Source of the DNA: a virus
Length of the DNA: 64,000 nt
Strand: one strand, 5' to 3'
Virus record (IMG/VR): IMGVR_UViG_3300027503_000002
Below the pieces are notes generated by a model that ran no database searches, had not been told where the DNA came from, and worked only from the letters and a program-made list of their open reading frames with translations. The position numbers and the translations under genes are program-made. Of the stretch, positions 4,118-64,000 are shown piece after piece (positions within the stretch are counted from its first letter, which is position 1; the number at the start of each line of letters is the position of its first letter).

Positions 4118-4132
4118 TTGGAGACTAATCAA

Positions 4133-6783: not shown

Positions 6784-6791
6784 CCTAGCGT

Positions 6792-33600: not shown

Positions 33601-36385
33601 AAAAACTACAGGTTATGTTGTCACAACTCTTGATGACGTTATCGTTGGTAATTCCTCTTCGCCAATTACTGTCACACTGATTTCCGCCTCGGCTAATAGC
33701 GGCAGACAGTATACGATAAAAAATAAAGGCACTGGAACTCTAACAATCGACGCCACTTCTCTTGGTCAAATTGATGGCGCCAATACTTACGTTTTAGATC
33801 AGTACGAAGCAGTTACTGTAATTAGCGACGGATCAACTTGGAACGTGGCTGTTGGTGGAACTTCTGGCTCATCTGGTACAAGCGGTACTGCTGGCTCGTC
33901 TGGATCAAGTGGTACTTCTGGTACAACTGGCACTTCTGGTTCTTCAGGCACGAATGGCTCCAATGGTACTAGCGGTGTTAATGGTACGAGCGGAACAACT
34001 GGTACTAGCGGCTCATCAGGTACTAGTGGTGCAAATGGCGCTAACGGCACCAGCGGTACAACTGGCACTAGCGGTACAGCAGGCACCAGCGGCGCGAACG
34101 GTGCTAATGGCACAAGCGGTGTCAATGGTACTAGCGGTACGACCGGCACTAGCGGCACCAGCGGAGCAAATGGCGCCAACGGTACTAGTGGTGTAAACGG
34201 TACAAGCGGGATTAATGGCACAAGCGGCACAGCTGGTACCAGCGGAGCAAACGGCGCTGTTGGCACTAGCGGTACAACAGGCACAAGTGGCACTAGTGGC
34301 ACCAGCCCACTAGTTGGATGGTCGGTAAAAACATCTAGCTATACAGCGGTAAACGGTGATCGCCTTCTCGCTGACACTTCAGCTGGAGCATTTACTATTA
34401 CTTTGCCAGCTTCTCCATCTGCTGGTCATTATGTAGAATTTAATGATCCAGAAGAAACTTGGCCGATAAATAATCTGACAATTGCAAGAAATGGTTCTAG
34501 AATCGATAGCTTGCTTGAAGATCTTGTATGTAATATTTCAGCTACAATCGGCTTAACTTATATTGATGCGACAATTGGTTGGAAAATCGATGTTATTTCT
34601 GAAATCGGTGGCACTCAAGGAACTAGTGGTAGCAGTGGCATTAATGGTACCAGTGGTATCAATGGCACTAGCGGTACAAATGGGACTAGCGGAACTACTG
34701 GTACTAGTGGTACTACCGGAACTAGTGGAATTAATGGCACAAGTGGTGTTAATGGTACGAGCGGAGTCAATGGAACAAGTGGCACAACTGGTACTAGCGG
34801 CATTAACGGAACCAGTGGTACTACTGGCACTAGCGGTACAGCAGGCACTAGCGGCGCAAATGGCGCTAACGGCACTAGCGGCGTCAATGGCACTAGCGGT
34901 ACAACGGGTACAAGTGGCACTAGCGGTGCAAATGGCACCAGTGGCACGACAGGTACTAGCGGCGCAAATGGCGCTAATGGTACAAGTGGAGTTAACGGAA
35001 CTAGTGGCGTTAATGGCGCAGCTGGGACAAGTGGTACAGCTGGTACTAGCGGTGCAAATGGTGCTGCTGGCACTAGTGGGACAACAGGTACTAGCGGTAC
35101 AAGCGGAACTAGCCCACTTGTTGGCTGGACGGTAAAAACCTCAAATTACACCGCAGTTAATGGTGATCGTATTCTTGCAGACACTTCTGCTGGCGCTTTT
35201 ACGATTACCCTACCAGCTACTCCATCTGCTGGTAACTATGTTGAAATTAATGATTTTAAAGAAACTTGGCCAACTAATAATTTAACTGTAGCTAGAAATG
35301 GATCGAGAATCGAAAGCTTGTTAGAAGACTTAACTTGTAATTTCTCTGCTCTTCTAGGATTTACTTATATCGATGCTACAATCGGCTGGAAAGTAGACTT
35401 TATCGCTGAACTTGGCGGAACACAGGGCACTAGTGGTACCAGTGGCGCAAATGGCACAAGTGGCGTAAGTGGAACAAGCGGCACAAATGGCACAAGCGGA
35501 AGCAGTGGTGCTAGCGGTACTAGTGGCGTTAACGGTACCAGCGGTGTAAATGGAACAAGTGGTACCAGTGGCGCAAATGGCACAAGCGGTGTAAACGGAA
35601 CGAGCGGCGTCAATGGAACTTCTGGTACAAGCGGTGCTAATGGCGCTGCTGGAACCAGCGGTGTTAATGGAACGAGTGGTACTAGCGGCGCGAACGGTGC
35701 TAATGGCACTAGCGGTATAAATGGTACTTCTGGCACCACTGGCACTAGCGGCACAAGTGGAGCTAATGGTGCAGCTGGTGCTAACGGAACTAGCGGAACT
35801 ACAGGAACAAGTGGTACAAGCGGCGCTAATGGCGCAGCGGGTGCAGCGGGTACCAGTGGCACAACTGGCACTAGCGGTACAAGTGGTGCTAACGGTGCGG
35901 CAGGCACAAGTGGCACAAGTGGCGCTGGAACTATTTCTGGCACTACCAATACAATTGCTAAATTTACTTCTTCAACTGCCGTTGGCAATTCTTCTATTAC
36001 TGACACTGGATCGCTTGTAACAATCGGCGTTAATACCACAATCAACGGCCATATGGCCGCGCAGACCAAGGCGTTCCTTATTGACCACCCCACAAAGAGC
36101 GGAATGAAGTTGCAGTACGCCTGCTTGGAAGGCCCAGAAAACGGCGTGTACGTGCGCGGGCGCGGGCGCGGGGGCGTGATCTCACTGCCCGATTACTGGG
36201 TCGCGCTGGTTGATCCTCAGTCTATCACTGTTCAACTCACTCCGTTTGGCTATCAGCAAAACCTTTATGTTGAAAAAATTGAAGGCAACTTTATTTATAT
36301 ATCGTCAGACTCGCCCGATCTGGATTATTTTTATATAGTCTACGCCGAGCGTGTTGATGTAGAGAAACTTAAAGTGGAGTTTTAA
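30608..36385 (+). CDS. 1925-aa fibre protein with Gly-X-Y ([12 protein letters not shown]) collagen-like tracts and globular domains
   Basis: Gly at every third residue over five long tracts; duplicated [18 protein letters not shown] domains; C-terminal [17 protein letters not shown] domain. Confidence 0.8.
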
Positions 36386-48379: not shown

Positions 48380-48676
48380 ATGACGGGCAAGGACTATTTA
48401 AATGACAGGGTAAAGGTTAATACTTCTGATCTTTTCAAGCGTATGCTTGGAATCCTAGAAGATATTAAGCACGAACACGACCGTCAATTTGCAATATTGT
48501 ATTCTTCGGCTCCCGATTCCTTCAAGCCTGTAGTCAAACAAGCCAATTATCTTGATGAAAATCAAATGGCTTGGTTAAGAAAAAAAGTTCTCGATATGGG
48601 CAATGAATCCATTCGAAAAATGACTACCGAAATGGATTTGATCCATATTGAATTTCATCACACATTTAAACAATGA
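48380..48676 (+). CDS. hypothetical protein
   Basis: First gene of the chaperone/tape-measure operon. Confidence 0.6.
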   Translation: MTGKDYLNDRVKVNTSDLFKRMLGILEDIKHEHDRQFAILYSSAPDSFKPVVKQANYLDENQMAWLRKKVLDMGNESIRKMTTEMDLIHIEFHHTFKQ

Positions 48677-49404
48677 AAGAACTATTCGACTTCACAGTCA
48701 AAATTAATAAGGAAGTAGAAAAAACCGAGACCCGTGAGGAAGATGGCAAGACTATCACGGTCACCAGTAAAGTAAAGGAAGACGTTCCTGTGCGGATAAT
48801 CTTCAAACAACCATCGCGCCGTGATACTGAAGACGCGGAGATTCAATTTAGCGTGGAGATGTCAAACTGCATTAAGAAGGGCATTTTGACAAAAGGAATG
48901 TTAGTTAAGAAGTACTCTGATACCGGAGGCATCTTCTCCGAAGATGATGACAAGCGTCTGACAGCAATGTACATTGATATGGCAAAAATGCAGAGAGAGT
49001 ACGTTGCTCTTGAAAATGGTTCGGCAGAAGAGAAAGAGCGTGCGAATACAATTCTGGAAAAGCTTGCCGCAACAAGAAAGGAGATGGTAGATCTTGAGTC
49101 TACATATCTTAATCTTTTCAACAATACCGCAGATGTAATTGCACAGAACAATCTAATTCGTTGGTTCTGTGTTAACCTTGCTTACAAGCAGGAGCAAAAT
49201 GGCAAGATCGAGCCGCTTTTTAACGGTTCGACTTACGAGCAAAAGCTTGACAATATGAGAGACCTTGACGAGGCAGAAGACCCTCTTTATCAAGCTACTT
49301 TCAGAAAGTTAGCCACATTTGTTTCTTTCTGGTATTACAGCAAGAATGCGACCAAGGAAGATTTCAAAAAGCTAGAGAAAGATCTTGAAGAAGGAAAGTA
49401 TTAA
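48673..49404 (+). CDS. putative tail assembly chaperone
   Basis: Position two genes before the tape measure. Confidence 0.5.
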   Translation: MKELFDFTVKINKEVEKTETREEDGKTITVTSKVKEDVPVRIIFKQPSRRDTEDAEIQFSVEMSNCIKKGILTKGMLVKKYSDTGGIFSEDDDKRLTAMYIDMAKMQREYVALENGSAEEKERANTILEKLAATRKEMVDLESTYLNLFNNTADVIAQNNLIRWFCVNLAYKQEQNGKIEPLFNGSTYEQKLDNMRDLDEAEDPLYQATFRKLATFVSFWYYSKNATKEDFKKLEKDLEEGKY

Positions 49405-50374
49405 CGAAATTGATTTATTCTTGGCGTTCTGCCAGATAGTAGAGGGTTGCTCTGAGAAGGTTTTCTTGGGCAACCCTGTTTTTATTAAACATATAACTAT
49501 TAAAGAGCGTGAATTCTTTAATAAGAAATATAAAGCTTATCTAGCTCACGCCATATCTAAGGGGCTTCCAAAAGAAGACGACGCCTTAAAAAAGGCAATA
49601 GAGGACGAGTTATGGTCGCAGAAAGAGGACGAAGAGATTAAAGTGTCAGAAAAATATATTGAAACACTTAATATAACCAGAAAAAAAGTATTTAAAAAGC
49701 TTCAGATTGATGAAATTGAAAAAAATATAAGGGAAGAAAAGGAAAAGGTCGCCAAAAAACTTGCAGAAAAAAAGCAAATCTTGGGAAAAACTGCCGAGGA
49801 TTATGCATCTAGTAGAGCTAGTGACTATCTGATATATAGCTGTTTTTATAAGGACAAGGAATTAAATCAACGGTTTTTTTCCGAGCAAGAGTTTGACGAA
49901 ATATCAAACAAAGAACTTGAGGAGTGTATTTTGGTTTACAATAGTTATTTTAACGATATTTCTGATTTAAATATTCAACATATTGCCATTTCTGACTTTT
50001 TCCATCCAAACTATCTTGTTTTAGATCATCCGATGGAGCTTTTTGGAAAGCCGATGACAAAACTTTCCGAAAATCAAATTAGGTTGATAATTTATGCCAA
50101 AATATTTAAAAATATATTTGAGACTGTAGAGCATATTCCAGAGGAGATAAAAAAAGATCCAGAAGCGTTATTGCAATATAAAGACAAGAATCAGGCTCAA
50201 AAAGAGTTCGAAAACAAAACAAAATCGAAGAAAAAAGGCAATGTTGATGGTGCAGAAATGGTATTCGGAGCTACAAAAGAAGAAATAGGAAAAGACACTA
50301 AGACCTTGAAAGATGTTATGAAGGATAAAACATCTCTTTCAATGGAAGACTTGATGAAATTGCACGATAAATAA
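49385..50374 (+). CDS. putative tail assembly chaperone (second)
   Basis: TTG start overlapping the previous gene; immediately upstream of the tape measure. Confidence 0.5.
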   Translation: MKKESINEIDLFLAFCQIVEGCSEKVFLGNPVFIKHITIKEREFFNKKYKAYLAHAISKGLPKEDDALKKAIEDELWSQKEDEEIKVSEKYIETLNITRKKVFKKLQIDEIEKNIREEKEKVAKKLAEKKQILGKTAEDYASSRASDYLIYSCFYKDKELNQRFFSEQEFDEISNKELEECILVYNSYFNDISDLNIQHIAISDFFHPNYLVLDHPMELFGKPMTKLSENQIRLIIYAKIFKNIFETVEHIPEEIKKDPEALLQYKDKNQAQKEFENKTKSKKKGNVDGAEMVFGATKEEIGKDTKTLKDVMKDKTSLSMEDLMKLHDK

Positions 50375-50410
50375 TATAAATTCTGTGTAAATAACCTCAA
50401 AGGTTAAAGG

Positions 50411-53400
50411 ATGGCAAAAGGAATCACAGTACCTGTAGTCCAGTCGGGTTTAGAAGCCTCTATCGAGGCGGCGGCCAAAAAAGCTGGACCGCTGACTCTT
50501 TCTGCGTCTGTTGATCCTGGTTCCTTTAAAAGACTAGCCCAGCCTCTTGGTAGAGTAAGCGGTCTGGCAACAGAGTTCGAAAAGTCAATTGCCGCATCAA
50601 ATGCGCGTGTTATCGCATTCGGCGCTTCTGTAGGTATCATCAATGGCGTACAAAATGCTTTTGCTACGCTTGTTAAAACAACAATTGAAGTTGAAAAAAG
50701 CTTGGCTAATATTGCCATTATTAGCGGAAAAACTACTCAGGAACTTGAACCATTTTCCAGAGCGCTTTTTGAGATTGCCAAAACTACCTCGCAATCTTTC
50801 CAGACAGCCTCCGAGGCGGCACTAGAGTTCTCTAGACAGGGCTTGGGTCTTGAAGAAACGCTAAAAAGAACTCAGGACGCCCTTACTCTTACTCGTTTCA
50901 CAACTTTAAGCGCTGCTGAAGCCGTGGATGTACTCACGGCTGCGGCAAACTCTTTCGGAGCAACTGGAATTACAACTAGCGAGATTCTGAATAAGCTGGT
51001 TGCCGTAGATACTAAATTCGCAGTCTCTGCTGAAGACTTGGCTAAAGGCTTGTCCCGTGCTGGCTCGATTGCTCAAGAAGTTGGCGTTAGCTTTGACGAA
51101 TTAAATGCCATCGTCACAATTGCACAAGAAAGAACTGCGCGTGGTGGCGCGGTAATTGGTAACGCATTCAAGACAATTTTCACCAGAATCAGATCAGATG
51201 AAACTATCAAAGCATTGCAAAGCATTGGTATCTATTCATTTGATGCCGAAGGTAGACTGAGGCCGGTTGTAAGTCTTCTTGAGGAATTGGCTGGGAAAAT
51301 TAATACCCTTAGCGAAACCAAGAGAATCGAAGTTCTTGAGGCGATTGCTAGCAAGTACAACATCAACGTTTTGACAGCGCTTGTTGACGACTTGGGCTCA
51401 ACAGCGAGCAAGTTTAGAGAGGCGAGAGATGTTTCTGCGGGCGCGCAAAGCGAGGCATACCAGCGTCAGATTGAACTCAATCAAACTCTAGATGCAGTTA
51501 TCACAAGAGTTACAAATTCAGCCGCTCAGCTTGCTGATACTCTTGGCAGAATTGGCGTTACTGACAGCCTTAAGTCGCTTTTAAACTTTTTTGACAACAT
51601 TCTTACTGGGATTAATGACGTTATCGATTCCGAAGGAATTGGCGGCACTATTGCTAAAGGTTTAATTTCTGGACTTAGTGGAGTATTTTTCAAGATCGGC
51701 ATTCCTCTTCTTCTTGCGATATTCGTTAAGCTGACAAAAGACATTGCCCAATTCGGCACTGAGTCACTAAAAACTATCTTGGGAATCAACAAGGAAGTCA
51801 GGGAGCGCCAAGCTTTGGAACAGGCTGTTGTTAATACGCTGATCAAGGATCAGCAAGTAATGGCGACAATCCTGTCTCTAAGCGGAGATCGCAGAAAGCA
51901 AGAAGAGTATTTACTTTCTGTTTACAATAGGCAGTTAGCGGCGCTTCAGCAAGTACAAAGCATCGCGGCAAATGTTGCCCCTGCACTACAAGCCGCTGGA
52001 CTTAGCGCTACATCTGGAACGATTAAAAAGAGAGCGGCGGGAGGTTATCTGCCAGCAGAAGAGGCGAAAGATGTGCGTCGTGGAGTTGGTGGGGCCAGCC
52101 CTTCTTCTAAAGTCGTAGAGATTCCAAACTTCTCGTTTGGCGGCGGTAAGCGTGGCACGATGGTAGCAAATACCAGCGAATATATTGTGCCTAATTATGC
52201 TGGTGGTAGCGGTACGGCTATCTTTAATCAGGATATGGCGAAGGAGTATGGTCTACCGCCCGGAGCTAAAAAGATTACAGCTTCTGGTGGATTTGTGCCT
52301 GCTAATGGGTTTGTACCAAATTTTGCGGCTAAAAAATTCAATGTTTTTGATCAAGCAAAGGCTAAAGTTAAAAAAGATCAAGAGCCTATAGACTATGTAG
52401 ATCTTGATGGAATACGCAGGTCTGCATATTTAACTTTGGATGCATCAATTGATCCGGTAGGAAGATTTTCTAAATTACAATCTTCAGCGCAGCAGAAATT
52501 AACTGAAAAACTAGGACCAATCGCAGAAAATGCTAAAATTGTTCCTGACCAAGGATCAATTGAATTTGTACAAATTAATAAAAGCTTGCAAAGAGATGAT
52601 TTAGTTCAAAAAATTCGTGAAACTAAAAACAAAATTCAAGCTAATCCAAAAGCTAAAATAGATAAGGATATTGAGGATATTATCCAGTCTATTTTGCCAG
52701 AAACAAAAGGTAGTGTTGACAATAATCTTAAAGCTGCCGTCAAAACAGAACTTCAAGTTCAGGGGCCAGCAGCATTTAGGTCTGGAAATATATTAGAGGA
52801 TATTTTGTTCAAAAAAATTACTGGAACGATAGAGGGAAGAAATAGCAAAACTTGGGATTTGCCAGCAGAACAATCTGGCGCTTTTAAAAGCAGATTTGGG
52901 TTCAAATCTAAATTTGGAGACATAAAATTAGGTTCGTCAACAAGTAGTATTTCGTCATTCATTGGAAAGCATATCATTTCTCCAACGGGTCAAAATGCAT
53001 CGGGGGGCTACATTCCAAATTTTGCGCGCTACGTTTATGACGCTGACAGAGTTGATGCAGATAAAAATAACCTACTAAAGGCTATTTTAGCTTCTCGCGT
53101 CAAGAAGAATTTAATAGTTGGACCAGCGGGATCTGGTAAGTCAACTTACGGGGAGTCTCTTGGTTCATTTATAACCAATATTGCCCAGTTAACAGACGCC
53201 AGTGAGATCGATATTCTTTCAGGCGCGGCAAGAACAAAAGATGGCGGCGTTTCTAAAAACTTCCAGCAAATTTCTGATGCGGTAAATGCATCTGGAGGAA
53301 AGATCTCTTATTTGTACACTGGCAATATGGACATTCTGTCCAGAAGAACTGGAAGAATCGCAGAGGGTCCAAAACAAGGCGATCTCAGAAGCAAGAAGCA

Positions 53401-56400
53401 AATTGCAGGATCGATGTTTGCTCCGCTTAATCAGTTTGATTTTATTTCAAAAGTAAAAGGCTCTGCTAAAAACTTTGAGATGATTCGCGGCGCCAAGGGA
53501 TATGTTCCAAATTTTGCCGATAAAAAGCCAGCGACAATAAAGGGCGGAAAGGTTGATAGAAAAACATATACGGGACCAAGAGCGCTTGTTAGCGCTCAGG
53601 GTATAGCAGGCATGATTGTTCCTGACCAAGCTAATCAGGAAACAATGACTAATTATCTCAAGAAAAATCCTTGGGGCTTCCAAACAAAAGAAGACGTATA
53701 CCTTCCTCCAGAAAATAGTCTTATAACTAATGTAAGGTACAATACTTACGGCTTGAATGAGCAGGCGTTTGAAGGACAGGCTTTGAAGAAAAGCGGAACA
53801 CAAACCTTGATTGAAGCTGATGTTGAAAAAGCTGGCATAGAGATAGCGAAAAAATGGGCTACAAAATATTCAGATGAGTATGCGAAAAAGATGCCTGGCC
53901 GTTCAGTTAAAACTAATTATGATGAAAATTTTATCCGCACATCCTTTACAGAATCAGAAGGCGCCGTCTCGGCAATCTCTACTTTAGGAGGCGGTATATT
54001 TGAGTCTTCTATTAGGGCAGCTTTAGATACTCAAGTTGGACAAAGAATAGAAAAAGCACAAAAAGAAGATTCAAATAACAGGTTAGATTTCCCAGTTAAT
54101 CCATTTCTTAAAGAATTATTTGGTATTGGCGGTGGCGAGCAATTTGTAGATGCAAAGATTTCAGGAAGCCCCGGTTCAACAGGAAGAAAACTAGCTGATC
54201 AAATTGTTGCCGCTCAACTTTATAAACCATACAAAACTGTCAAGACTGCCGCAGCAGAAGGCTATATTCCAAATTTTGCACAAAAGAAACAGCAGTCTAT
54301 CTTGGCCCCATCTGGACAGTTCTATGACCTTGATACCGCTGACGCATTTCTTGCTGCATCTAATGTAAATCTTGAAGCCAAGCCATCTGCTCCAAAGGGT
54401 TTAGGGGATGAATTAAAGAAGAGAATTCTAACTTCAGCTAGAAGAGTTTATGGACCAAATGCACAGATTGGTATTTCAAGATTGCCGGGCAAGAGAGAGG
54501 CTTTCACTTCAACAGTACTGGCAAATCCAGCTTTAGCTGATGACTTCATTGCCTTGCAAAAAGCAACAACTGGTGGCGTTGGACCAGAGTCCAACACTCC
54601 AGAAGCTCTTGCAAAATTTAATAATCCAACGCCTTTTGATCCAACTCCTTGGCCAGCAGTAAGAGCGGTTGGCGGCAAAACTCGCTCGATTAAGAAGGTT
54701 GGGCCAAGATCTTTGAATGCCGCAGCGGGCTACATTCCAAACTTTGCAGATCTTTTTGTTGATTACGATTATACTATTTTTGGACAACAGCTTGGCAAGG
54801 CAACTGATTTTAATGCTCAAAAAGCATTAATTAAAAATATTCCAGAAGACCAAATGACTGAGCAGGAGCGCCAAGCTCGCGATGCTCAAATGAAGCTTTT
54901 GACTCCGTTTGGTCAAAAACTTCTGCAATCGAAGAAGCCTTTCAAACTTGCAACGGCAAGATGGAATGATTATCAACCTGGTATTGAATCCTCTTTGAAG
55001 GGTTTAGGTTTTAATGTTAATGGTGTTTTCGCTTTGGGCAGAGAGTTCTCTGAAGAGCAGTACAAGGTCGATAACCCCAAGTTTGCAGAAGAGATGAAAA
55101 AGCCAGAGGGTGAAAGAAATACTAGAGTAAAACCTAAAATCGATCCATCTGCTGCCCAGAAAAAAGCGTTGTTTTTTAAAGAGCGTGCGCCGAAAATTGC
55201 TACAGGCGATATTGATTTTGTAGATAATGATCCAGCGAACTTGCAAGCAGTAAAATCGCTGATGCCGAAAATAAATACGTTTACTCCTGATCAGTATGCG
55301 GCAAAGCTTTTGGCCCCACAGCGAGTAAAAGGAACAAAGGCTTCGCTGGGATATGTTCCGAACTTTGCTGATAATGACCCATTAAAAGAAGCTGTTAATA
55401 GAGAAGTTGGTGCTGGCGTGCCGCCCGCGCGCGTGCGCGTGACGCAGGATGAAAGATTAAAGAACTCAAAAAACCCAAATGGTCTCGCCGTTATCAACAC
55501 CAGAGACGAGCCAAATGGCAAGATTCCAAATGATTTTAGAGAAAGAGGAATGCGCGCGGCTATGGGAAGTAGAGGGTTTGTACCAAATTTTGCAGATCTT
55601 AGTACAAAACAAATTAAAGAAATTTTAGGCAAGTCTCCAAATCCAATAAGTGCAGAACGGTACACAGGTGGTGAAGGTTTTGATTACGGGGTTCAAACTC
55701 AAAAACAAGGAGATCAGAAACAGGAAGCAAATGATGAAACAAAAAAAATTGATATTGGCAAATTCCTTGTTCTTCAGACCGCAATAGTTGGAGCTACATC
55801 AGCAGTTCAGGCGTTCACAGAAGAAAATAGTAACGCGGCAAATGCTTTAGAAGGTGTAAACGCCGGTCTTTCTGGACTTGCAACATTCGCATCTTTAGCG
55901 GGAAGCGTAAACATACCTCTTAGAATATTTCTTGGTTCGTTGACGGCTTTAGCTTCCGCCGCTCCTTTGATCAGTAGAATTTTTGAAGCTCAAAAAACTC
56001 CCGCCGAAAAAGCTAGCGAGGCTTTAACAAAACTGGCTAGAGAGGCCGAAAGAACTGGTCAAAAACTCACGCCAGAAAATATTTTAGCAAAATTAACAGA
56101 AGGTCGTGCTGAAGGTAAACAAAAACAAGAGGCTGTAAAAGTTTCAGATCTTGTAGAAAAAGCAATAACTAGTACACAATCTGTTGGATTTCCAGATATT
56201 TCTAAGGACTTGATAAAACAAATAAGCGCTGTTCTGTCTGCTACTGGAAATATAACAAGAGATCAAGAGGGCAAAATCACTGGAGTTGATACGGACGCAA
56301 TTAATAAAATTTTTGCAGGGGTGATCACAAAGACAACTGAACAAGGATTAGCTAGTCAAGATTTTATGGGAGGGGTTCAACCTGGTGTTGAGCGCACAGC

Positions 56401-59400
56401 AGTAAATGAAAATTTATTGCAAGAAAATGTCATTGATCTTTTAAACGATCAAATTAAAAATGAGAAACAAAGACTTTCAATTAGACAAGAAGGTCAAGTC
56501 TTAGATAAAGTTCAACAGGCGCTTTTGACTAGGGATAATGAACTACTTTTGTCTAGACAAAAAGCGCTTGAGTCTATTTTTCAAACACAGTTAAAAATAA
56601 ATGAAAAATATAATGAAGAGTCTTTAAGAATTGAAGGCTTGTCTGCTGCACTAGAAAGAGAGAAACAGTTTAGAACAGAATCTTACACAATATCCCAAAA
56701 AGCAGCCTTAGATAAAGAAAAAGCAGAAGCGGAATATAATAAAACTGTGGCGCAGATCGCGCTTGATTTAAGAAAAAATTTAGGCGCTGGGGCTAAAGAA
56801 TCTGTGCTTGGAGGAACTCAACAGGTTCAAGACTTTTTAGGCAATTTAGATACCAGTAAATTACAAGGCTTAATTGATGGATATGCCAATGCGCTTAAAA
56901 CTAACGAGCAAGCTTTAAAAGATGGTACAGTAAAAATTGATGACGTTTTTGGTTCAGTTTGGTCAAAATTTACAGAAGGACTTGTTGGCGTTCCTCCAGA
57001 ATTAAATAACTTAATACTGGGTTCAAAAGAGCAGTTTTTAGCTTTAGTAAGATCAGCTTATGAAACTAAAGCGAATGCCGATCAGACTAGAATATTAACA
57101 AATACGCAGATTGATTTCGCCGCAACAAATTCAGAAGCTAATACAGAACTTAGAAAATTACAAAGCGCATACAAACAGAATAGGTCAAGACTGGCGTACT
57201 TGAATAGCCGCAATGACGGAAGCGAAACTCAAGATATTACATCTGATGAAGCTGCGGCAGTTGAAGAACAGTTAAATATTCAAAGAGAAAAATTAATTAC
57301 TTCCATACAAGACTTGGAAATTGCTAATGCGGAAGAAATAGCCCTGCTTCCAGAAAAGAAAAAAGCTGATTTACAAAGAGTCCTAATTACCAACGGTCAC
57401 GCAAAATCAATTCGTGAATTAACTGGAATCGATCAGGCAGCGGCAATTGCAGCTTCAAATCTTAGTGAAGAAACTGATAAAAGAGTATTTCAGTTAAAAA
57501 CTGACGCTAAAAATGCAGAACTAAAGCTTAATACAGATAATAATTTATTAAATGCAGAAACAGACTTGATCGACGCCTATAATCAAGCCTACAAAGGCAG
57601 TATCCAAACTGAAACTGTTGCAGCTAAATTAAGAAGTGCTCAATCAAAATTGACAAAATCCGAGTCTGATAAAGATGATGAATTACAAGTTCAAATTGCT
57701 CTTATACAGCAAAATTGGAAAGGTGAAAGCAGAGATATCCAAAGAAAGACTGAGCTTTTAAGAGAGCAGAATAAAAAGATCAGTGTAACTCAGCAAGCCA
57801 TACGATTAGAAGAGCAGTTAAATCTTGAAGCTGAACAGTTAATTGAAGCTAGAAGAAAAGCCTCCGCAGCGCTTTCAGAAATCAATCTGACAAAAGCGAT
57901 TGAAAATCAAATTACTTCCGCTGGAACTGCAAACATTCAGGAAATAACAAAAACAATAGTGCAAGGCCGAGCTTTAACACAAACTGGAGTACAGTCTAGT
58001 TTTGAGCAGCAGGCAAGAGCTTCGGTTTTTGAAAGAAGAATGGCTGGAAGAACAGAAGTTGATCTAAGAGAGAGTACTAATATTCTTAGTGGGAGAGACA
58101 ACTCCATTCAGCAAAATTTACAAATTCAACGAGGCGTTCTTCTCGATCAGGCCGAAACATTCCAGCAAATTATTGGTAATCAGACACCAAAACTGTTTGC
58201 GGATGGAATGGCGGAAGCGATGCAGGCTGCTCTTAATCAGGCAGATGATCTTGGTGGCGCATTAAGAAATGTTGCCCTTAACTTCCTAAAGAGCCTTCAG
58301 AGCGCATTTTTACAAAGTGCTTCAAGACAGATTGTAGCTTCTATTCTGCCAACAGGCGCGGCAAAGGGTGGCTATGTAAAGGGTTACGCAACTGGTGGTC
58401 TTGTGACTGGCGGTAGCGGATATAAGGATGATGTGCCAGCAATGTTGAGTGAGGGTGAATATGTAATTCGCAAGTCTTCTGTTAAAAAGTATGGCGCATC
58501 TAATCTACAAAAGCTAAATTCAGGAGAAGCTCCTAAGTTTGCAGCTGGTGGCATTTTCCTACCCGGTATTCGTGGCCAAACTGAAATTTCAGGCTATAAG
58601 GATTTAACCGCTTTTGCTAAACAAACAACAACAAGCGGCGCAACAGATGTATTAGCTGGCGGCGCAACAACCGCTTTTGCCAACCTTGAAGATCAAAGCT
58701 CAAGACTTTCTGCTTATGCTTTGATGAGAGAGGATGACACCATAAATCAGGAGATTCGCAGCGCTCAAGAGCAGGCTATGAATATAATGGCCGAAAGAGA
58801 AGCTTACAGAACTGCTGAAAGAAAAGCATTTCAGAAACAGCTTGTTGGAACAGTAGCCTCCGCTGCTTTAAGTTATGGAATAAATGCTGGGGTTGGAAAA
58901 TTAGGAAGTCTATTTAGTGGTGCGGCAGCGGCTGGAAAGGGTTCCGCTACTGGATTAGGTTTAATGGACCAAGTTTCTGGCAAAACTCAATTTTTGACAA
59001 ATGCGAAGCCTTTTAGTTTTCAATCTCCACCAGCATTCAATTATAGCTTTGGCCCAACAAAGGCTTATGGTGGAATGATCAAGCGTTACAACGCTGGCGG
59101 TCCAACAGACGATATTCCCGCACTTCTTATGGGTGGCGAGTATGTAATGAATCGCCAAGCAACCAAGAAATACGGTAAACAATTCTTTGATTCGATCAAT
59201 CAAGGCCGCGCTCCAAGATTTGCTGATGGCGGTCAAGTTTCCACCGCAGAGCCAAGCTTCGCTGAGAAAGCGGCGACAAGTTCTGACTCTAAAGCCGCAG
59301 GAGCTACAAATGTTAGCATCAATATCAATGTAACTGGCGGAACATCAGATACCCAGACTCAGGGTGATACCAAACAGGGCGGCATTGACTACAAGAAGAT

Positions 59401-59479
59401 GAGCGAGCAGATCAAACAAGTCGTCATCCAAACAATCAATGAGGAAAAGAGACTAGGCGGATCATTAAGAAGTAGATAA
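50411..59479 (+). CDS. tape measure protein (3022 aa) with inserted enzyme-like modules
   Basis: N-terminal TP901-type TMP core (EFSRQG, AVSAEDLAKGL.RAGS, IGNAFKTIFTRI), long coiled-coil, C-terminal YATGG..DDVPAMLSEGEYV motifs. Confidence 0.85.
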   Translation: MAKGITVPVVQSGLEASIEAAAKKAGPLTLSASVDPGSFKRLAQPLGRVSGLATEFEKSIAASNARVIAFGASVGIINGVQNAFATLVKTTIEVEKSLANIAIISGKTTQELEPFSRALFEIAKTTSQSFQTASEAALEFSRQGLGLEETLKRTQDALTLTRFTTLSAAEAVDVLTAAANSFGATGITTSEILNKLVAVDTKFAVSAEDLAKGLSRAGSIAQEVGVSFDELNAIVTIAQERTARGGAVIGNAFKTIFTRIRSDETIKALQSIGIYSFDAEGRLRPVVSLLEELAGKINTLSETKRIEVLEAIASKYNINVLTALVDDLGSTASKFREARDVSAGAQSEAYQRQIELNQTLDAVITRVTNSAAQLADTLGRIGVTDSLKSLLNFFDNILTGINDVIDSEGIGGTIAKGLISGLSGVFFKIGIPLLLAIFVKLTKDIAQFGTESLKTILGINKEVRERQALEQAVVNTLIKDQQVMATILSLSGDRRKQEEYLLSVYNRQLAALQQVQSIAANVAPALQAAGLSATSGTIKKRAAGGYLPAEEAKDVRRGVGGASPSSKVVEIPNFSFGGGKRGTMVANTSEYIVPNYAGGSGTAIFNQDMAKEYGLPPGAKKITASGGFVPANGFVPNFAAKKFNVFDQAKAKVKKDQEPIDYVDLDGIRRSAYLTLDASIDPVGRFSKLQSSAQQKLTEKLGPIAENAKIVPDQGSIEFVQINKSLQRDDLVQKIRETKNKIQANPKAKIDKDIEDIIQSILPETKGSVDNNLKAAVKTELQVQGPAAFRSGNILEDILFKKITGTIEGRNSKTWDLPAEQSGAFKSRFGFKSKFGDIKLGSSTSSISSFIGKHIISPTGQNASGGYIPNFARYVYDADRVDADKNNLLKAILASRVKKNLIVGPAGSGKSTYGESLGSFITNIAQLTDASEIDILSGAARTKDGGVSKNFQQISDAVNASGGKISYLYTGNMDILSRRTGRIAEGPKQGDLRSKKQIAGSMFAPLNQFDFISKVKGSAKNFEMIRGAKGYVPNFADKKPATIKGGKVDRKTYTGPRALVSAQGIAGMIVPDQANQETMTNYLKKNPWGFQTKEDVYLPPENSLITNVRYNTYGLNEQAFEGQALKKSGTQTLIEADVEKAGIEIAKKWATKYSDEYAKKMPGRSVKTNYDENFIRTSFTESEGAVSAISTLGGGIFESSIRAALDTQVGQRIEKAQKEDSNNRLDFPVNPFLKELFGIGGGEQFVDAKISGSPGSTGRKLADQIVAAQLYKPYKTVKTAAAEGYIPNFAQKKQQSILAPSGQFYDLDTADAFLAASNVNLEAKPSAPKGLGDELKKRILTSARRVYGPNAQIGISRLPGKREAFTSTVLANPALADDFIALQKATTGGVGPESNTPEALAKFNNPTPFDPTPWPAVRAVGGKTRSIKKVGPRSLNAAAGYIPNFADLFVDYDYTIFGQQLGKATDFNAQKALIKNIPEDQMTEQERQARDAQMKLLTPFGQKLLQSKKPFKLATARWNDYQPGIESSLKGLGFNVNGVFALGREFSEEQYKVDNPKFAEEMKKPEGERNTRVKPKIDPSAAQKKALFFKERAPKIATGDIDFVDNDPANLQAVKSLMPKINTFTPDQYAAKLLAPQRVKGTKASLGYVPNFADNDPLKEAVNREVGAGVPPARVRVTQDERLKNSKNPNGLAVINTRDEPNGKIPNDFRERGMRAAMGSRGFVPNFADLSTKQIKEILGKSPNPISAERYTGGEGFDYGVQTQKQGDQKQEANDETKKIDIGKFLVLQTAIVGATSAVQAFTEENSNAANALEGVNAGLSGLATFASLAGSVNIPLRIFLGSLTALASAAPLISRIFEAQKTPAEKASEALTKLAREAERTGQKLTPENILAKLTEGRAEGKQKQEAVKVSDLVEKAITSTQSVGFPDISKDLIKQISAVLSATGNITRDQEGKITGVDTDAINKIFAGVITKTTEQGLASQDFMGGVQPGVERTAVNENLLQENVIDLLNDQIKNEKQRLSIRQEGQVLDKVQQALLTRDNELLLSRQKALESIFQTQLKINEKYNEESLRIEGLSAALEREKQFRTESYTISQKAALDKEKAEAEYNKTVAQIALDLRKNLGAGAKESVLGGTQQVQDFLGNLDTSKLQGLIDGYANALKTNEQALKDGTVKIDDVFGSVWSKFTEGLVGVPPELNNLILGSKEQFLALVRSAYETKANADQTRILTNTQIDFAATNSEANTELRKLQSAYKQNRSRLAYLNSRNDGSETQDITSDEAAAVEEQLNIQREKLITSIQDLEIANAEEIALLPEKKKADLQRVLITNGHAKSIRELTGIDQAAAIAASNLSEETDKRVFQLKTDAKNAELKLNTDNNLLNAETDLIDAYNQAYKGSIQTETVAAKLRSAQSKLTKSESDKDDELQVQIALIQQNWKGESRDIQRKTELLREQNKKISVTQQAIRLEEQLNLEAEQLIEARRKASAALSEINLTKAIENQITSAGTANIQEITKTIVQGRALTQTGVQSSFEQQARASVFERRMAGRTEVDLRESTNILSGRDNSIQQNLQIQRGVLLDQAETFQQIIGNQTPKLFADGMAEAMQAALNQADDLGGALRNVALNFLKSLQSAFLQSASRQIVASILPTGAAKGGYVKGYATGGLVTGGSGYKDDVPAMLSEGEYVIRKSSVKKYGASNLQKLNSGEAPKFAAGGIFLPGIRGQTEISGYKDLTAFAKQTTTSGATDVLAGGATTAFANLEDQSSRLSAYALMREDDTINQEIRSAQEQAMNIMAEREAYRTAERKAFQKQLVGTVASAALSYGINAGVGKLGSLFSGAAAAGKGSATGLGLMDQVSGKTQFLTNAKPFSFQSPPAFNYSFGPTKAYGGMIKRYNAGGPTDDIPALLMGGEYVMNRQATKKYGKQFFDSINQGRAPRFADGGQVSTAEPSFAEKAATSSDSKAAGATNVSININVTGGTSDTQTQGDTKQGGIDYKKMSEQIKQVVIQTINEEKRLGGSLRSR
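52307..55594 (+). repeat. seven in-frame G[YF][IV]PNFA peptide repeats inside the tape measure
   Basis: Codon starts at 52307, 53006, 53498, 54260, 54728, 55349 and 55574. Confidence 0.9.
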
Positions 59480-60249
59480 TGAAATCATCAGTATCAAGCT
59501 ATGAAAACAGTCTTTATATCAGCGGCGTCAAAATATTTGGCGTCAACGATGTTAATTTCGGCTATTCTTTGCCGATTGAGCACATCAATGTTATCGGCGC
59601 TAATAAATTTACTACTTTTACCAATAACGCGCCGCAGTCAAACCTGAGTGTTCAGAAGTACCTTTCGCCAGCAGACTTCTTTTTAAATTTTACGGGGGCT
59701 GGACAGGTCAGCGGCGGTTTATTTTACAATAATAAGAATTTTACATTTAATCGCGCGTATCTTAATAATTATTCTGTTTCCTGCGCCGTTGGAAACTTTC
59801 CATCTCTAAGCGCCGATTTCACAATCTTTGGTAATGTAGGAACTGGTGTCGCAAGTTCGGGGGCTAGCCAAACAGGCGCACTATCAGTCGTCCGTCCTAG
59901 AGATATAGCTATTCGATGCGATGGTACTGGAACAAACAGAATCGAAGCTTTTACATACTCACTTGAGTGCCCAAGACAGGCTTTTTATCATCCAACTGGA
60001 TCAACTCCAATGGATGTTGTGACATTGCGCCCATTTAGGGCAACCGCCCAGTTCACGCTTGGCGTTGATGATTATGAGTCGAAAAGAGTTTTAGATTATA
60101 TTGTTGATTCCAACAAGCAGAATATTAATATAACAATAGGGTCTCTGGCGACATTTTCAATGAACAATATGGAGTTAATAAGTGAAACGATCAATTCGTC
60201 CGCAACTGACGAGCTTTCGTTAACGCTTACTTATCAAGGATTTGTCTAA
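59479..60249 (+). CDS. tail-tube-like tail-tip protein
   Basis: AYLNNYSVSCAVGNFPSLS and VVRPRDI align with tail tube AYITNYTVEAAVGGLPTVS and ALRPGDI. Confidence 0.6.
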   Translation: MKSSVSSYENSLYISGVKIFGVNDVNFGYSLPIEHINVIGANKFTTFTNNAPQSNLSVQKYLSPADFFLNFTGAGQVSGGLFYNNKNFTFNRAYLNNYSVSCAVGNFPSLSADFTIFGNVGTGVASSGASQTGALSVVRPRDIAIRCDGTGTNRIEAFTYSLECPRQAFYHPTGSTPMDVVTLRPFRATAQFTLGVDDYESKRVLDYIVDSNKQNINITIGSLATFSMNNMELISETINSSATDELSLTLTYQGFV

Positions 60250-61211
60250 TGTCATTTCTATACGACAGAGATTATAATGTCACAGGAACGGTTCAAACAA
60301 CGTTTGATTTTAAACCGTCTTATGGAACCTCTGTCAATTTTTCGGCGGATTTAAGCTCTTATGTTACTGTCGATAATTATTTATATTCAATGCCAAGAGG
60401 AATGAATCATTTGCAGATGACGGTGCAAATGCCATTTGAAAACAGAAAAGAGGCTGAAGCTACAAGAATTGCCAGTTTCTTTGAGAATCTTCGCGGCACA
60501 GGATATTTCACTTTTACCGATCCAGCTTCGATATACAAGCCAGTTAATTTATTTTGCGGCGGAATTCAAACTAATTTCACAGTCAATGATCTTTATACAA
60601 TACAAGTCGAATTGGCTACGGATCAAGTTTCGTCTCTTTTAAATTGGAATGGAATGTTTGTTACGGGCTCTGGCATAAAGGGAAGTTGGGCCACATCTAC
60701 TGCGTATTCAAAATACGATGTTGTCAGACATACTGGCAATGCATCTTTCCCGCAGAATACCGGCAACTTATATGATTGCTTTTATTACTGTACTGGCGAT
60801 CACACAAGCCAGTCTTCCATCAATGGCTCAGAAATTACCAACGGAAAATGGACGCAGGAGTTCTTTTTTCAGCCAACTTACTCGTCAACGGTGGGCAAAG
60901 AGACTTCTACTTTAAAGACAGAGTTGCCGTATTCATTCACAAAAAGAAGCGATTTTGGACTGCACGGAAATGTTCTAAAACAATTTACGATGGAGTTTAA
61001 GGGAATCACTGATCTTGAGGCGAGATCGATTTTACACTTTCTAACTGGAAGACAGGGCTATAGAAAGTTCCAGTATAAAATACCAAATATATATAATAAA
61101 AACAAATACTTTTTTGCACCAGAGTGGAAGCACACTTTTGTTTATAAAAATGTAAATGATATTTCAGTAACGCTGGTGGAAGATCCTGTCGGCATAAGGA
61201 GGGTTTACTAA
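60249..61211 (+). CDS. minor tail (distal-tail-like) protein, duplicated domain with CBM-like insert
   Basis: Two FxP(S/T)Y..EA..I..F....G...F units; WATSTAYSKYDVV insertion. Confidence 0.55.
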   Translation: MSFLYDRDYNVTGTVQTTFDFKPSYGTSVNFSADLSSYVTVDNYLYSMPRGMNHLQMTVQMPFENRKEAEATRIASFFENLRGTGYFTFTDPASIYKPVNLFCGGIQTNFTVNDLYTIQVELATDQVSSLLNWNGMFVTGSGIKGSWATSTAYSKYDVVRHTGNASFPQNTGNLYDCFYYCTGDHTSQSSINGSEITNGKWTQEFFFQPTYSSTVGKETSTLKTELPYSFTKRSDFGLHGNVLKQFTMEFKGITDLEARSILHFLTGRQGYRKFQYKIPNIYNKNKYFFAPEWKHTFVYKNVNDISVTLVEDPVGIRRVY

Positions 61212-64000
61212 TGGGCAGACCAATCTCATATGAAATGCAAATGATGTTTGTTGGTTCCTCTGGCGCTTTTGAGGAGGCGATGAACACGGGCAGCGGAATC
61301 AGTCGTCTTGATTTTATTCAGGGCTACGACTTCTCTTTCAATATTGAAAGAACTCCGCTGAAACAAATCGGCTCCGATTCGTTTGCTACAAGGCAGACTC
61401 AGCTTGCGCCGGATGTTAATTTAAATATTCAATACTATTTGAATGATGGCTGGAATGATAAGTATATTGGACTGGATATACCGACAGGTACGACTGGTAA
61501 CCCATTCGATTCTATTCTTTCGTCTACTGGCGACCGTAATTTCTATATCAGTATCGCGCAGAATGATGGAATGGATCAGAACTTACAAACAGGAATTGTT
61601 AATAGTAATATTCTCGCGATTGGTAACGCCTATATTACTAACTATGAAATCAGTGTGGCAGTTAATCAGCTGGCGACTGTTTCGTGTTCTTTTGTGGGCG
61701 CAAATGCTAATGTGCAAGATTATGCGACTTCGAAGTACTTACCATCGGTAAATACCCTTGTTAGTGGCCAAAATGCTCAAGATGCAAATAAAAATTTCTC
61801 GTTAAACTTTGTCAATAACTCAAGAACTGAAAGGTATTTGCCAAAAGCAAAGGAAGTATTTAATGGCGGATGTCCTTACAGTAAATGTAAGATTACCCCA
61901 GACTTTCAGTCAGGTGGCGGCACTTCGCCAATTACTTTTGGCTTCTTTGACGCGATTGCCAACAACTTCCAGAGTATGCAATTCTCTGTTCAGTTTGAAC
62001 GCAAGGCTCTTTATGGGTTTGGCAATAATCATCCATACATTAGAAAAATTCAAAGACCAACAGTTGCCACATTATCTTTGTCGGCGCTGATTGATGATTT
62101 TCAAGCTGAAAATTTGAGTAAGGTTTTTCACGCTGAAGGTGGAACTCAGAAATCAATGTTGATTGAGTTTTTTAATTTAGAAGACGTTAAAAAGTTTGGG
62201 TTGTCGTTACAAAACCTAACGCTTGAGTCTTATAACCTTGGAGCAAGAATTGGAGACAGGGTTTTAGTAGAAACTAATTGGAGCGTTGAGGTTAAGAACG
62301 GCGCAGGGGCAGATATTGGTATGGTTGGGTCTTATGGACCGCCGCTTCTTGATGTAACAAAAGTTAATGAGTCTTTTGCAGTTGAGAGGTTATTTTTTCA
62401 AGCGGCTGCATCAGACGCTGGACAGTCTTTTGCTATCGATAAAAATGGAACACTATGGGGTTGGGGAGTCAATACTTACTGGTCAGAGAATTTCCGCGTT
62501 AATACAATTAATTCTTTAGAAGGTCAAGTGGCAACTCCTACAAAAATAATAGGCGCTAATCGTACTTTTTGTAAAGTAGTATCTACGGGAGGAGGCTTTA
62601 GCGCTATAGACAAAAAAGGTAAAGTCTGGAGTTGGGGGCCAAACAATTATGGTCAAATTGGAGACGGCTCTACAACAAGTCGCACATTGCCAACATCTTT
62701 ATATGGCAATAAAACATTTTGTGAAATATCTGGGACTTTTGATAGAAAAGTAGGCTTAGATAAAAACGGTAAGCTTTGGGCTTGGGGGCAATTAAGTAAT
62801 TCTCCGGCAGTATGCTCTTCAACTCCAGTAGCAGTTTATCAAGACAAGACATTCTGTAAAATATCTAATGCTTCGGATTTTATCGACAAAAATGGTAAAG
62901 CTTGGGCGTGGAGTTATCCAAATCCAACTGCTGTCGGCGGTAATAAAACATTCTCCGAAATATCCTCAGCTGGTAATTATACGCTTGCGATAGATAAATA
63001 TGGAAAGGCTTGGGGCTGGGGATATAACGGTGCTAATAATATTGGAAGCGGAAGTAGCATTCCAGATTTTGTCAATTCTAATAGTCCAATAGCTGTTTAT
63101 GGAAATAAAACATTTTGTAAAATATTTGCAAGAGATGAATTTAACGGAATTGGAACCTCTTTTGCAATTGATAAAAATGGCAAAGCTTGGGGATGGGGAG
63201 CGAATGGATATGGACAGTTAGGAGATAATTCGATAATAAATAGATGCACGCCAGTGGCAGTTTGTGGAAATAAAATATTTTCTAATATTTATATTGGATA
63301 TACTACAGCGAGTTGGACTGCGGCGGACGATATTCCCCGTCCTTTTGTTATTGGAATAGATAATAACAATACAGCTTGGAGTTGGGGAAGTAATTTAGCA
63401 GGAACTTTAGGAAACGGTAATAAACATTACCATTGTGTTCCTATTTTAGTTAATAGCGCTAGAACATTCTGTAAAATAGCGGCTAATGCATACACTTCTC
63501 TTACATTAGATAAAAATGGTCTGGCTCAATTTTCTGGATTCACTAATATTTATGGAAATAAAACCGTATGCGAAATTGGTCTTTCTTTGGAAAGTTACTA
63601 TATAATAGATAATGCTGGTAAAGCTTGGGCTTGGGGGACCAATGACTTTGGGCAGTTGGGAGATAATTCAATAACTTCTCGGGCTACTCCAGTTCAGGTA
63701 TATGGCAGTAAAACTTTTTGTAAAATTATAGGAAACAATGCAACATTCAGCGGCGATGCATTTGCACTCGCTATAGATAAATATAATAAAGCTTGGGCGT
63801 GGGGCATAAATACTAGGGGGCAGCTTGGAAATAATTCTATAACTAGTAGGCGTACTCCTGTCGCAGTTTGCGGAAACAAAACATTTTGTCAAATATGTGC
63901 TGGATATGATCACGTTCTCGCAATTGACAAAAATGGTAAAGCTTGGGGCTGGGGAGGTAATTACTTTGGAGCAGTTGGAGATGGCTCTACAGTATGTAGA
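61211..64000 (+). CDS. tail-tube-like domain fused to RCC1 repeats (partial, runs off the window; missing from ORF track)
   Basis: ATG 61211 overlaps the upstream TAA; read by hand with no stop found; N-domain matches tail tube motifs, RCC1 repeats from about 62420. Confidence 0.8.
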   Translation, partial: MGRPISYEMQMMFVGSSGAFEEAMNTGSGISRLDFIQGYDFSFNIERTPLKQIGSDSFATRQTQLAPDVNLNIQYYLNDGWNDKYIGLDIPTGTTGNPFDSILSSTGDRNFYISIAQNDGMDQNLQTGIVNSNILAIGNAYITNYEISVAVNQLATVSCSFVGANANVQDYATSKYLPSVNTLVSGQNAQDANKNFSLNFVNNSRTERYLPKAKEVFNGGCPYSKCKITPDFQSGGGTSPITFGFFDAIANNFQSMQFSVQFERKALYGFGNNHPYIRKIQRPTVATLSLSALIDDFQAENLSKVFHAEGGTQKSMLIEFFNLEDVKKFGLSLQNLTLESYNLGARIGDRVLVETNWSVEVKNGAGADIGMVGSYGPPLLDVTKVNESFAVERLFFQAAASDAGQSFAIDKNGTLWGWGVNTYWSENFRVNTINSLEGQVATPTKIIGANRTFCKVVSTGGGFSAIDKKGKVWSWGPNNYGQIGDGSTTSRTLPTSLYGNKTFCEISGTFDRKVGLDKNGKLWAWGQLSNSPAVCSSTPVAVYQDKTFCKISNASDFIDKNGKAWAWSYPNPTAVGGNKTFSEISSAGNYTLAIDKYGKAWGWGYNGANNIGSGSSIPDFVNSNSPIAVYGNKTFCKIFARDEFNGIGTSFAIDKNGKAWGWGANGYGQLGDNSIINRCTPVAVCGNKIFSNIYIGYTTASWTAADDIPRPFVIGIDNNNTAWSWGSNLAGTLGNGNKHYHCVPILVNSARTFCKIAANAYTSLTLDKNGLAQFSGFTNIYGNKTVCEIGLSLESYYIIDNAGKAWAWGTNDFGQLGDNSITSRATPVQVYGSKTFCKIIGNNATFSGDAFALAIDKYNKAWAWGINTRGQLGNNSITSRRTPVAVCGNKTFCQICAGYDHVLAIDKNGKAWGWGGNYFGAVGDGSTVCR

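Follow-up and report, generated by a model that had tools for sequence, protein, structure and literature searches.

Here, we describe a tape measure protein (TMP) of an uncultured large siphophage, encoded in the 64,000-nucleotide (nt) stretch of DNA in IMG/VR record IMGVR_UViG_3300027503_000002 (this whole stretch is called the window), in which a short repeated peptide, G[YF][IV]PNFA, is the unit boundary where related phages gain, lose and exchange modules. Independent, exchangeable modules delimited by this motif are strongly supported by the comparison of related TMPs. Tape measure proteins fill the tail lumen and exit before the DNA, and we propose that the fenced modules might travel in the tail as ready-made proteins and be cut apart at their junctions. 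Delivery and cleavage are plausible by analogy with other phage tails, and we give the explanation as a whole (modular array, cargo delivery and junction cutting together) an even chance of being right.

The open reading frame (ORF) in question encodes a TP901-1-type TMP (PF10145 / TIGR01760), and PHROG tape-measure families match both its N- and C-terminal parts (best E 4.9e-48).

50411-59479, + strand: TMP gene, 3022 amino acids (aa), with PF10145 and PHROG TMP families and tail-gene synteny in relatives
50777..51346, + strand: PF10145 PhageMin_Tail domain, aa 123-312, inside the conserved N-terminal 539 aa, E 1.1e-27

A regular-expression scan places G[YF][IV]PNFA at aa 633, 866, 1030, 1284, 1440, 1647 and 1722 of the TMP, with motif-to-motif spacings of 233, 164, 254, 156, 207 and 75 aa. 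An earlier reading of this DNA, made from the sequence only, had reported seven copies, and its coordinates and spacings were reproduced exactly. The copies are as follows, with the places where DNA homology to two relatives, L001 and L002, stops or restarts.

52307..52327, + strand: motif copy 1, GFVPNFA
53006..53026, + strand: motif copy 2, GYIPNFA
53498..53518, + strand: motif copy 3, GYVPNFA
54260..54280, + strand: motif copy 4, GYIPNFA; DNA homology to L002 stops here
54728..54748, + strand: motif copy 5, GYIPNFA; DNA homology to L001 stops at the last codon
55349..55369, + strand: motif copy 6, GYVPNFA; DNA homology to L001 and L002 restarts at the first codon
55574..55594, + strand: motif copy 7, GFVPNFA; homology to L001 and L002 stops at the last codon

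Upstream of the array lie the related peptides GGYLP (nt 52040) and YIVPNYA (about nt 52181), both as earlier reported, and IPNFSF (nt 52121), found in addition. In a six-frame scan of the whole window, the motif and its loose variants occur nine times, all within the TMP ORF; because of this confinement, and because the motif is conserved in hundreds of related TMPs, it is not a chance occurrence. A logo built from 442 copies extends it to [AG][AS]xG[YF][IV]PNFA. Searches of the literature with the motif strings, and for motif-fenced TMP arrays, returned nothing relevant.

The segments between the motifs, together with the segment X0 that carries the first copy, make up the array, which in the window runs M1-M2-M3-M4-M5-M6.

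52028..52327, + strand: X0, aa 540-639, a scaffold segment present in essentially all relatives; it carries GGYLP, IPNFSF, YIVPNYA and motif copy 1
52328..53005, + strand: M1, 226 aa, distant paralog of M3 with an E...D...(D/E)xK signature; a rare family
53027..53497, + strand: M2, 157 aa, P-loop NTPase-like with GPAGSGKST; common in the TMP family (alignment A4)
53519..54259, + strand: M3, 247 aa, the commonest module family; a folded domain in the predicted model
54281..54727, + strand: M4, 149 aa, with few relatives and no family assignment
54749..55348, + strand: M5, 200 aa, predicted HAD-superfamily phosphatase module
55370..55573, + strand: M6, 68 aa, scaffold element with 75 matches among the related TMP ORFs searched (alignments)

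Homologs were sought with TMP aa 540-1760 as the query, yielding 544 TMP-sized proteins that cover it patchily (7-74%) at high identity, and 119 of these were kept for motif analysis. They carry between 1 and 12 motif copies each, and cutting them at the motif gives 322 segments that fall into 50 families and 55 different module orders; the two commonest families (0 and 1) are found in both relative orders, and one family of 65-73 aa is nearly always last in the array. The N-terminal 539 aa are 44-99% identical in relatives. Module number and identity thus vary while the flanks are conserved (55 architectures in 119 TMPs), the pattern that the sequence-only reading had proposed looking for among homologs. 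Compared with the window, P0003 has a different module in place of M5, P0005 lacks M5, and P0007 lacks both M4 and M5.

The same boundaries appear in the DNA. Against L001, whose flanks are 92-96% identical to the window, and L002, the edges of the blastn high-scoring segment pairs fall at aa 638.7, 1289.7, 1445.7, 1647.0 and 1728.7, which are first or last motif codons. When all protein pairs are pooled, a motif stands no more than 3 residues from 47% of the ends and 40% of the starts of homology inside the array, and random positions come that close in 3.7% of cases; these percentages are descriptive, as the pairs are not independent. Relative L083 is a mosaic, with 99% identity over the N-terminal 539 aa, 47% over M3, 84% over M4, 96% over M5 and 61% at the C-terminus, and with M1 and M2 missing. 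The copies of M4 in L001, L009, L083 and L084 are 80-84% identical, whatever the identity of the flanks. The DNA pattern for GYIPNFA matched more than 120 further IMG/VR stretches, and about 72 of the 80 that were checked hold large ORFs related to this TMP family; some motif-bearing TMPs share only 25-45% identity at the N-terminus. A 2023 survey of phage protein mosaicism could not confirm genuine recent mosaicism in TMPs (PMC10684548), and the module swaps described here are the first clear cases of recent module exchange inside TMPs.

The seven window copies of the motif differ at synonymous sites, 166 copies from non-redundant relatives comprise 115 distinct 21-mers, and codon frequencies in the motif equal the gene background (CCA 0.60 vs 0.58, AAT 0.74 vs 0.75, GCT 0.50 vs 0.45). 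Because the motif codons track background usage, selection acts on the peptide and not on the DNA. The sequence-only reading had offered a DNA homology anchor for module swapping as an alternative, and in its strict form the motif would be kept only for its coding DNA in recombination, the peptide having no function. Homology breakpoints do coincide with the motif, and most copies share the AT-rich core CCAAATTTTGC, but synonymous sites vary freely and the peptide is retained in the TMPs with the 25-45% identical N-termini; the codon data largely refute this alternative, which we regard as very improbable. The AT-rich core, a product of codon bias, may aid recombination, yet it does not explain the conservation.

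X0 and M6 frame the array. X0 was found in 79 searched related TMP ORFs at 46-96% identity (alignment A6, 29 invariant columns), and M6, with the consensus PLxDAIxRE..AGV..IRV.Q...L.N..NP.GLAV.NTRDEP.G, is nearly always the last element. As X0 and the M6 core occur in essentially all relatives, they are scaffold rather than cargo, and the M6 segment, earlier counted among the cargo modules, is instead a universal scaffold element. Within M6, aa 1706-1711 read GKIPND, a decayed motif copy, where most relatives have G-x-IPNFA and the element ends; in the window 18 extra residues follow GKIPND, and then a fresh GFVPNFA. X0 and M6 were also considered as paralogs, and this was rejected since hhalign aligns just 13 columns, the motif itself.

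Hydrophobic segments lie on both sides of the array, and its proline content is 5.4% vs about 1.5% in the flanking coiled-coil-like parts.

51659..51745, + strand: hydrophobic, transmembrane-like segment, aa 417-445, upstream of the array (Kyte-Doolittle peak 2.09)
55763..55984, + strand: hydrophobic, transmembrane-like segments, aa 1785-1858, downstream of the array (Kyte-Doolittle scan)

Related TMPs also have a second insertion site, used by muralytic domains, which lies in the C-terminal half and is not PNFA-fenced: the lysozyme, chitinase-class-I-like and SLT domains of homologs P0065, P0068 and P0097 lie at aa ~1990-2165, outside the array.

M1 and M3 are distant paralogs in one superfamily: a jackhmmer profile of M3 matches M1 at E 8.7e-5, and E170, D198 and K221 are invariant in M3/M1 (alignment A1, 25 sequences), with mostly D or E two residues before K221. 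The sequence-only reading was thus only partly right that the segments are mostly unrelated to one another. The AlphaFold2 model of M3 (pLDDT 80.9, pTM 0.73; core 84-97) includes a long helical hairpin and leaves its motif-bearing ends as coil outside the fold (pLDDT 55-61). It has no Foldseek match in the PDB at E <= 0.001, its best VIA-wide match is a helical hairpin (Z 5.3), TM reaches at most 0.29 against the Atlas, a language-model search gave no usable match, and the M3/M1 profile returned nothing meaningful from the PDB. M3 and M1 were considered as PD-(D/E)xK nucleases, whose signature they carry, but no nuclease was found among the Foldseek, VIA-wide and Atlas matches; this identity was not adopted, and a nuclease reading of the signature is not established. 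Among 1.84 billion representatives the M3 profile matches 203 proteins, nearly all of them long TMPs matched at aa ~620-900, and the few short matches that were inspected are all fragments.

M2 has only sub-threshold AAA matches in Pfam, the sole matches obtained when each window module was searched at E up to 10, and PDB chains are matched by its profile just at the Walker A motif. The remaining conserved motifs of M2 resemble nothing known, and a search for free-standing homologs of 86-275 aa found none. M2 does not adjoin M5, and the two occur independently of each other in relatives; a kinase reading of M2, as the partner of M5 in a pair like that of T4 Pnkp, is not established. M4 has no Pfam match, and a PDB sequence search with the whole TMP middle region found nothing.

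M5 is well supported as a predicted HAD phosphatase by motifs, language-model look-alikes and fold matches. Residues D12, D14 and T16 (DxDxT), T76, K146 and D166 are invariant across two subfamilies (alignment A3); the language-model matches are phage HAD clusters, including the T5 dNMPase (deoxynucleotidase) family, at 0.91-0.93; and nearly all top Foldseek and VIA matches of the model are HAD enzymes. The best fold match is the T4 Pnkp phosphatase (5uj0_B; Z 8.5, root-mean-square deviation 3.7, 127 aligned residues), and 7ef7 is also matched (E 4.2e-3); a profile search gave no PDB sequence match. M5 was folded alone, as MAFFT on the joint M4-M5-M6 stretch set M5 homologs onto M6 via the repeated motif.

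A wider module census (69 families, about 200 loci) gave Pfam matches as single cases of staphylococcal nuclease (SNase, E 1.9e-9), GNAT (E 7.4e-5), DUF7178 and AAA_30, and 63 of the 69 families have no Pfam match. In P0236, a 164-aa fragment, a GNAT-like acetyl-CoA-binding signature (GERGKGIGSGLY) stands directly after a GYIPNFA junction. As judged from such matches, the array appears to combine a few recognisable enzymes with much unassigned material. The enzyme motifs that the sequence-only reading saw in several segments are borne out by HAD in M5 and by SNase and GNAT in relatives, while M2 offers Walker A only; its phrase for the array, a magazine of effector enzymes, is too strong, since some modules are enzyme-like but M3/M1 is nearly TMP-only with no recognised fold and most families lack a Pfam match.

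These identities also bear on whether the modules could instead be interchangeable structural fillers or channel parts, serving to tune tail length or to form a trans-envelope conduit, with the enzyme-like motifs as relics. Such a role would suit the near-confinement of M3/M1 to TMPs, the want of free-standing M2 relatives, the 63 families with no Pfam match and the long helical hairpin of M3, yet it sits poorly with catalytic-type residues that stay invariant in diverged copies (E/D/K in M3/M1; DxDxT, T, K and D in M5), with bona fide SNase and GNAT domains in relatives, with a proline content in the cargo region well above that of the coiled-coil flanks, and with rapid swapping (55 architectures) that resembles an arms-race pattern. 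We consider fillers improbable.

Under the cargo explanation, the array between X0 and M6 would be a row of independently folding modules, each ending in [AG][AS]xG[YF][IV]PNFA. Lying in the N-terminal half of the TMP, between the hydrophobic segments, it would be the last part of the protein out of the tail, just before the DNA, and would carry ready-made proteins into the cell. Candidate cargo comprises the predicted HAD phosphatase and the P-loop protein of the window and the staphylococcal nuclease and GNAT modules of relatives. GNAT and P-loop modules need acetyl-CoA and nucleoside triphosphates, which are found only in the cytoplasm, and these needs, with the N-proximal position of the array, favour cytoplasmic delivery, as far as module identities can be predicted. 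There is a precedent in phage P23-45, whose TMP has as its N-terminal part a virion RNA polymerase responsible for pre-early transcription (PMC10770324).

In the last and least certain step, the junction peptide would be a multiplied form of a maturation site of the T5 pb2 type, and a cut near PNF/A (the slash marks the cut), during tail maturation or after ejection, would free the modules. T5 pb2 is cut after R1127 during tail maturation, as mapped by mass spectrometry (PMC10038345), and this is the only mapped TMP cut. In the reference genome its context is SFVPR/AEGGMMYPGVSYQMGEHGTEVV, the first residues being SFVPR/AEGG. In the whole of pb2 (1219 aa) the pattern [YF][IV]P is present a single time, at precisely the cut site, and the window TMP has it eight times, at the seven motif copies and in FVPAN directly before copy 1. 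All seven copies fit the [YF]VP-x-type T5 cut sequence as [YF][IV]PNFA, a short resemblance that does not prove common origin. An old study of T5 (Zweig and Cummings 1973, cited in PMC10038345) reported that the host is involved. Lambda gpH is cut to gpH* plus gpHC in tail maturation, at an unmapped site and by a protease that has not been identified (PMC12617516).

The T5 cut is followed by an AxGG...GE.V joint; by eye, lambda gpH contains such a joint as well (FATGG...GEFV...YATGG), and the C-terminus of the window TMP has two.

58367..58552, + strand: C-terminal joint 1, aa 2653-2714, GGYV..YATGG...DDVPA.L.EGEYV...KYG...APKFAAGG; phrog_13338 match at 2650-2712
59069..59233, + strand: C-terminal joint 2, aa 2887-2941, GGMI...DDIPALL.GGEYV...KYG...APRFADGG; phrog_3547 match at 2877-2996

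Joint 1 resembles, by eye, lambda gpH 733-782 and the segment following the T5 pb2 cut, and the two joints end in APKFAAGG and APRFADGG. No such joint follows the seven internal motif copies; in the window TMP it occurs only at the PxFA.GG sites at aa 2710 and 2937. From these sequences we infer that G[YF][IV]PNFA is a short, multiplied derivative of a TMP joint boundary, and by analogy with T5 a cut near PNF/A is plausible. The sequence-only reading had guessed at protein termini there, and the T5 site lends this guess indirect support.

The junction peptide might instead never be cut, the modules staying tethered to the TMP. It could then act as a hydrophobic staple holding TMP chains in register, or as a chaperone or tube-lumen binding site at module borders, so that tube polymerisation could cross folded domains. 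PNF and PxFA elements do stand in the universal X0 (three within about 60 aa) and in C-terminal joints common to many TMP families, strict conservation over 7-10 residues suits a binding site as well as a cleavage site, and the TMP must remain a continuous ruler in tail assembly; yet the motif ends of the M3 and M5 models are low-confidence coil with no predicted packing, T5 pb2 is cut at a look-alike site, and no binding partner has been identified. We rate such a structural or docking role as possible though rather unlikely.

Several further points weigh against the cargo explanation. Pfam and PHROG searches revealed no protease in either the TMP or the window, which suits an uncut junction, and no peptidase family is among the Pfam matches of the whole TMP, its modules or the 69 module-family representatives. 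The T5 likeness is confined to FVP and then A after one or two residues, and the residue before the proposed cut is F or N here and R in T5. Cutting at all three PNF-type elements of X0 would chop the best-conserved segment, and a structural role therefore fits them better. The commonest modules (the M3/M1 family and M2) are found almost only in TMPs and have no recognised enzyme fold, so that they may be structural rather than effectors, and the narrow lumen of the tube must have room for the folded modules of three or six chains. The M5 model is poor (pLDDT 58.5), and M5 has no HAD or other Pfam match at E up to 10. The view of the modules as independent domains holds for M3, which folds alone with the motif in coil outside the fold.

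The sequence-only reading had also named the ORF at 25776-27398 (+ strand) as a prohead protease that might act on the motif; its 540-aa product has no Pfam or PHROG match. A link between prohead protease and motif was rejected, as this ORF matches no family and the motif is absent from the head proteins of the window. The putative portal (23853-25772) and putative capsid protein (28085-29230) likewise have no Pfam or PHROG match.

The genes around the TMP are those typical of a tailed phage and include a terminase large subunit, a 1925-aa collagen-like fibre, RCC1-repeat proteins and a minor tail protein. The TMP gene is the longest of its tail module (genes 48380-64000 and beyond), and in every relative examined it is followed by a 256-aa and then a 320-aa gene, the product of the latter matching a minor tail protein family (phrog_14) and showing a weak match to PF05939. 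Just upstream of the TMP, two + strand ORFs at 48673-49404 (243 aa) and 49385-50374 (329 aa) overlap by 20 nt, the second having only a TTG start and being shifted into the +1 frame with respect to the first; both ORFs, preceded by a 98-aa ORF, are kept in every relative examined, neither has a Pfam match, and from their arrangement they could be a tail chaperone pair of the G/GT type made by programmed frameshifting. Contigs related to this one, up to 137 kb long, derive from metagenomes of lakes, estuaries and the sea. The TMP middle region has no tblastn match among 50,697 GenBank phages, and identity between the N-terminus and the TMPs of cultured phages (Bacillus and Enterococcus phages) does not exceed 29%. 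A host search of 185,579 species genomes gave three matches, all to contigs of metagenome-assembled genomes with inconsistent taxonomy.

Elsewhere in the window, the 1925-aa fibre gene (30608-36385, + strand) matches collagen-like tail-fibre PHROGs at E down to 1.5e-138, and the local rise in G+C there is due to its glycine codons. Two large RCC1-repeat (beta-propeller) proteins are encoded at 40117-42321 and 61211-64000 (+ strand); the second comes after the minor tail genes and is probably a tail tip or receptor-binding protein. Between 4000 and 12900 the G+C content is 52-56% vs ~40% elsewhere, and the genes stand unusually far apart, with open frames shadowing them on the other strand; a RuvB-like AAA ATPase (4118-5062), DUF932 (6789-7565) and GP88 (8033-8860) were recognised, and the stretch has neither tandem repeats nor any rRNA, tRNA or Rfam match. 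Rfam and tRNA scans of the whole window, and of its first 20 kb separately, found nothing. At 14412-15485 (- strand) lies a gene for a 357-aa protein with a C-terminal immunoglobulin-like domain (I-set/Ig_3, E ~2e-7).

A broader version of the cargo explanation is more tentative, and we hold it as a possibility well short of an even chance: the motif would be a portable processing signal from a T5/lambda-type maturation site and the TMP a reprogrammable polyprotein injector across a large clade of siphophages that have not been cultured, its fenced modules loaded in the tail, reaching the cytoplasm ahead of the DNA and released there. Early takeover or anti-defence functions would then arrive as protein, replacing a T5-like step of pre-early expression. 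If cargo delivery is true, the tail lumen of long-tailed phages can store a variable set of finished proteins as cargo, going beyond a ruler plus a wall-degrading enzyme. The roughly 50-70 module families, mostly with no known domain, would be a pool of candidate early-acting or anti-defence proteins, and if a rule of one module plus one peptide holds, the TMP could be a chassis for delivering chosen proteins into bacteria. The junction peptide also offers a handle on how the T5 and lambda TMPs are cut, a seven-fold look-alike site being an easy substrate for finding a protease or a self-cleavage chemistry.

Among known systems, the polyvalent proteins of phages and conjugative elements combine many unrelated, fast-shuffled domains in one giant protein, among them nucleases, GNAT, phosphatases and lysozymes, and are predicted to accompany the DNA into the host and undergo processing into units (Iyer et al., 2017, PMC5512222). 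The TMP family of the window is alike in its 50-69 module families, 55 architectures and HAD, SNase, GNAT and P-loop modules. Polyvalent proteins are described as packaged in the head or delivered by conjugation and have their own MPTase peptidase, whereas here the chassis is a TMP in which searches revealed no peptidase domain, and a single conserved peptide fences the units; that paper makes no mention of tape measure proteins (PMC5512222).

T5 pb2 and lambda gpH are likewise TMPs cut in maturation, with an enzymatic or terminal piece staying in the tail; the T5 cut site resembles G[YF][IV]PNF/A, and the AxGG...GE.V joint is common to T5, lambda gpH and the C-terminus of the window TMP. There, a single cut falls near the C-terminus and neither protease has been identified, whereas here the look-alike peptide, a candidate cut site, occurs seven times in the N-terminal half with no GG...GE.V joint following. 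Thermus phage P23-45 gp96 also has a cytoplasm-acting enzyme fused in the N-terminal part of a giant TMP and active right after infection (Chaban et al., 2024, PMC10770324), but this is one fixed enzyme with no motif-fenced shuffled array and no sequence relation to the present TMP.

TMPs with embedded muralytic domains, such as those of mycobacteriophage TM4 (PMC1796659) and the peptidase of T5 pb2, share the presence of enzymatic motifs that act in infection. Their targets are in the cell wall, whereas here the lysozyme, chitinase and SLT domains lie outside the array (aa ~2000-2160) and the modules of the array seem to be aimed at nucleotides or nucleic acids. Sle1-type effectors of actinobacterial contractile injection systems also place an exchangeable functional domain on a TMP-related chassis in a tail-like particle (Nagakubo et al., 2026, PMC13277306), but with one C-terminal functional domain, in an injection system rather than a phage, and with no repeated junction motif. 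A repeated junction peptide fencing a combinatorially shuffled internal array is not described in these closest systems. Enzyme-bearing TMPs and polyvalent proteins are already known kinds, and what is new here is the motif-fenced, shuffled array inside a TMP.

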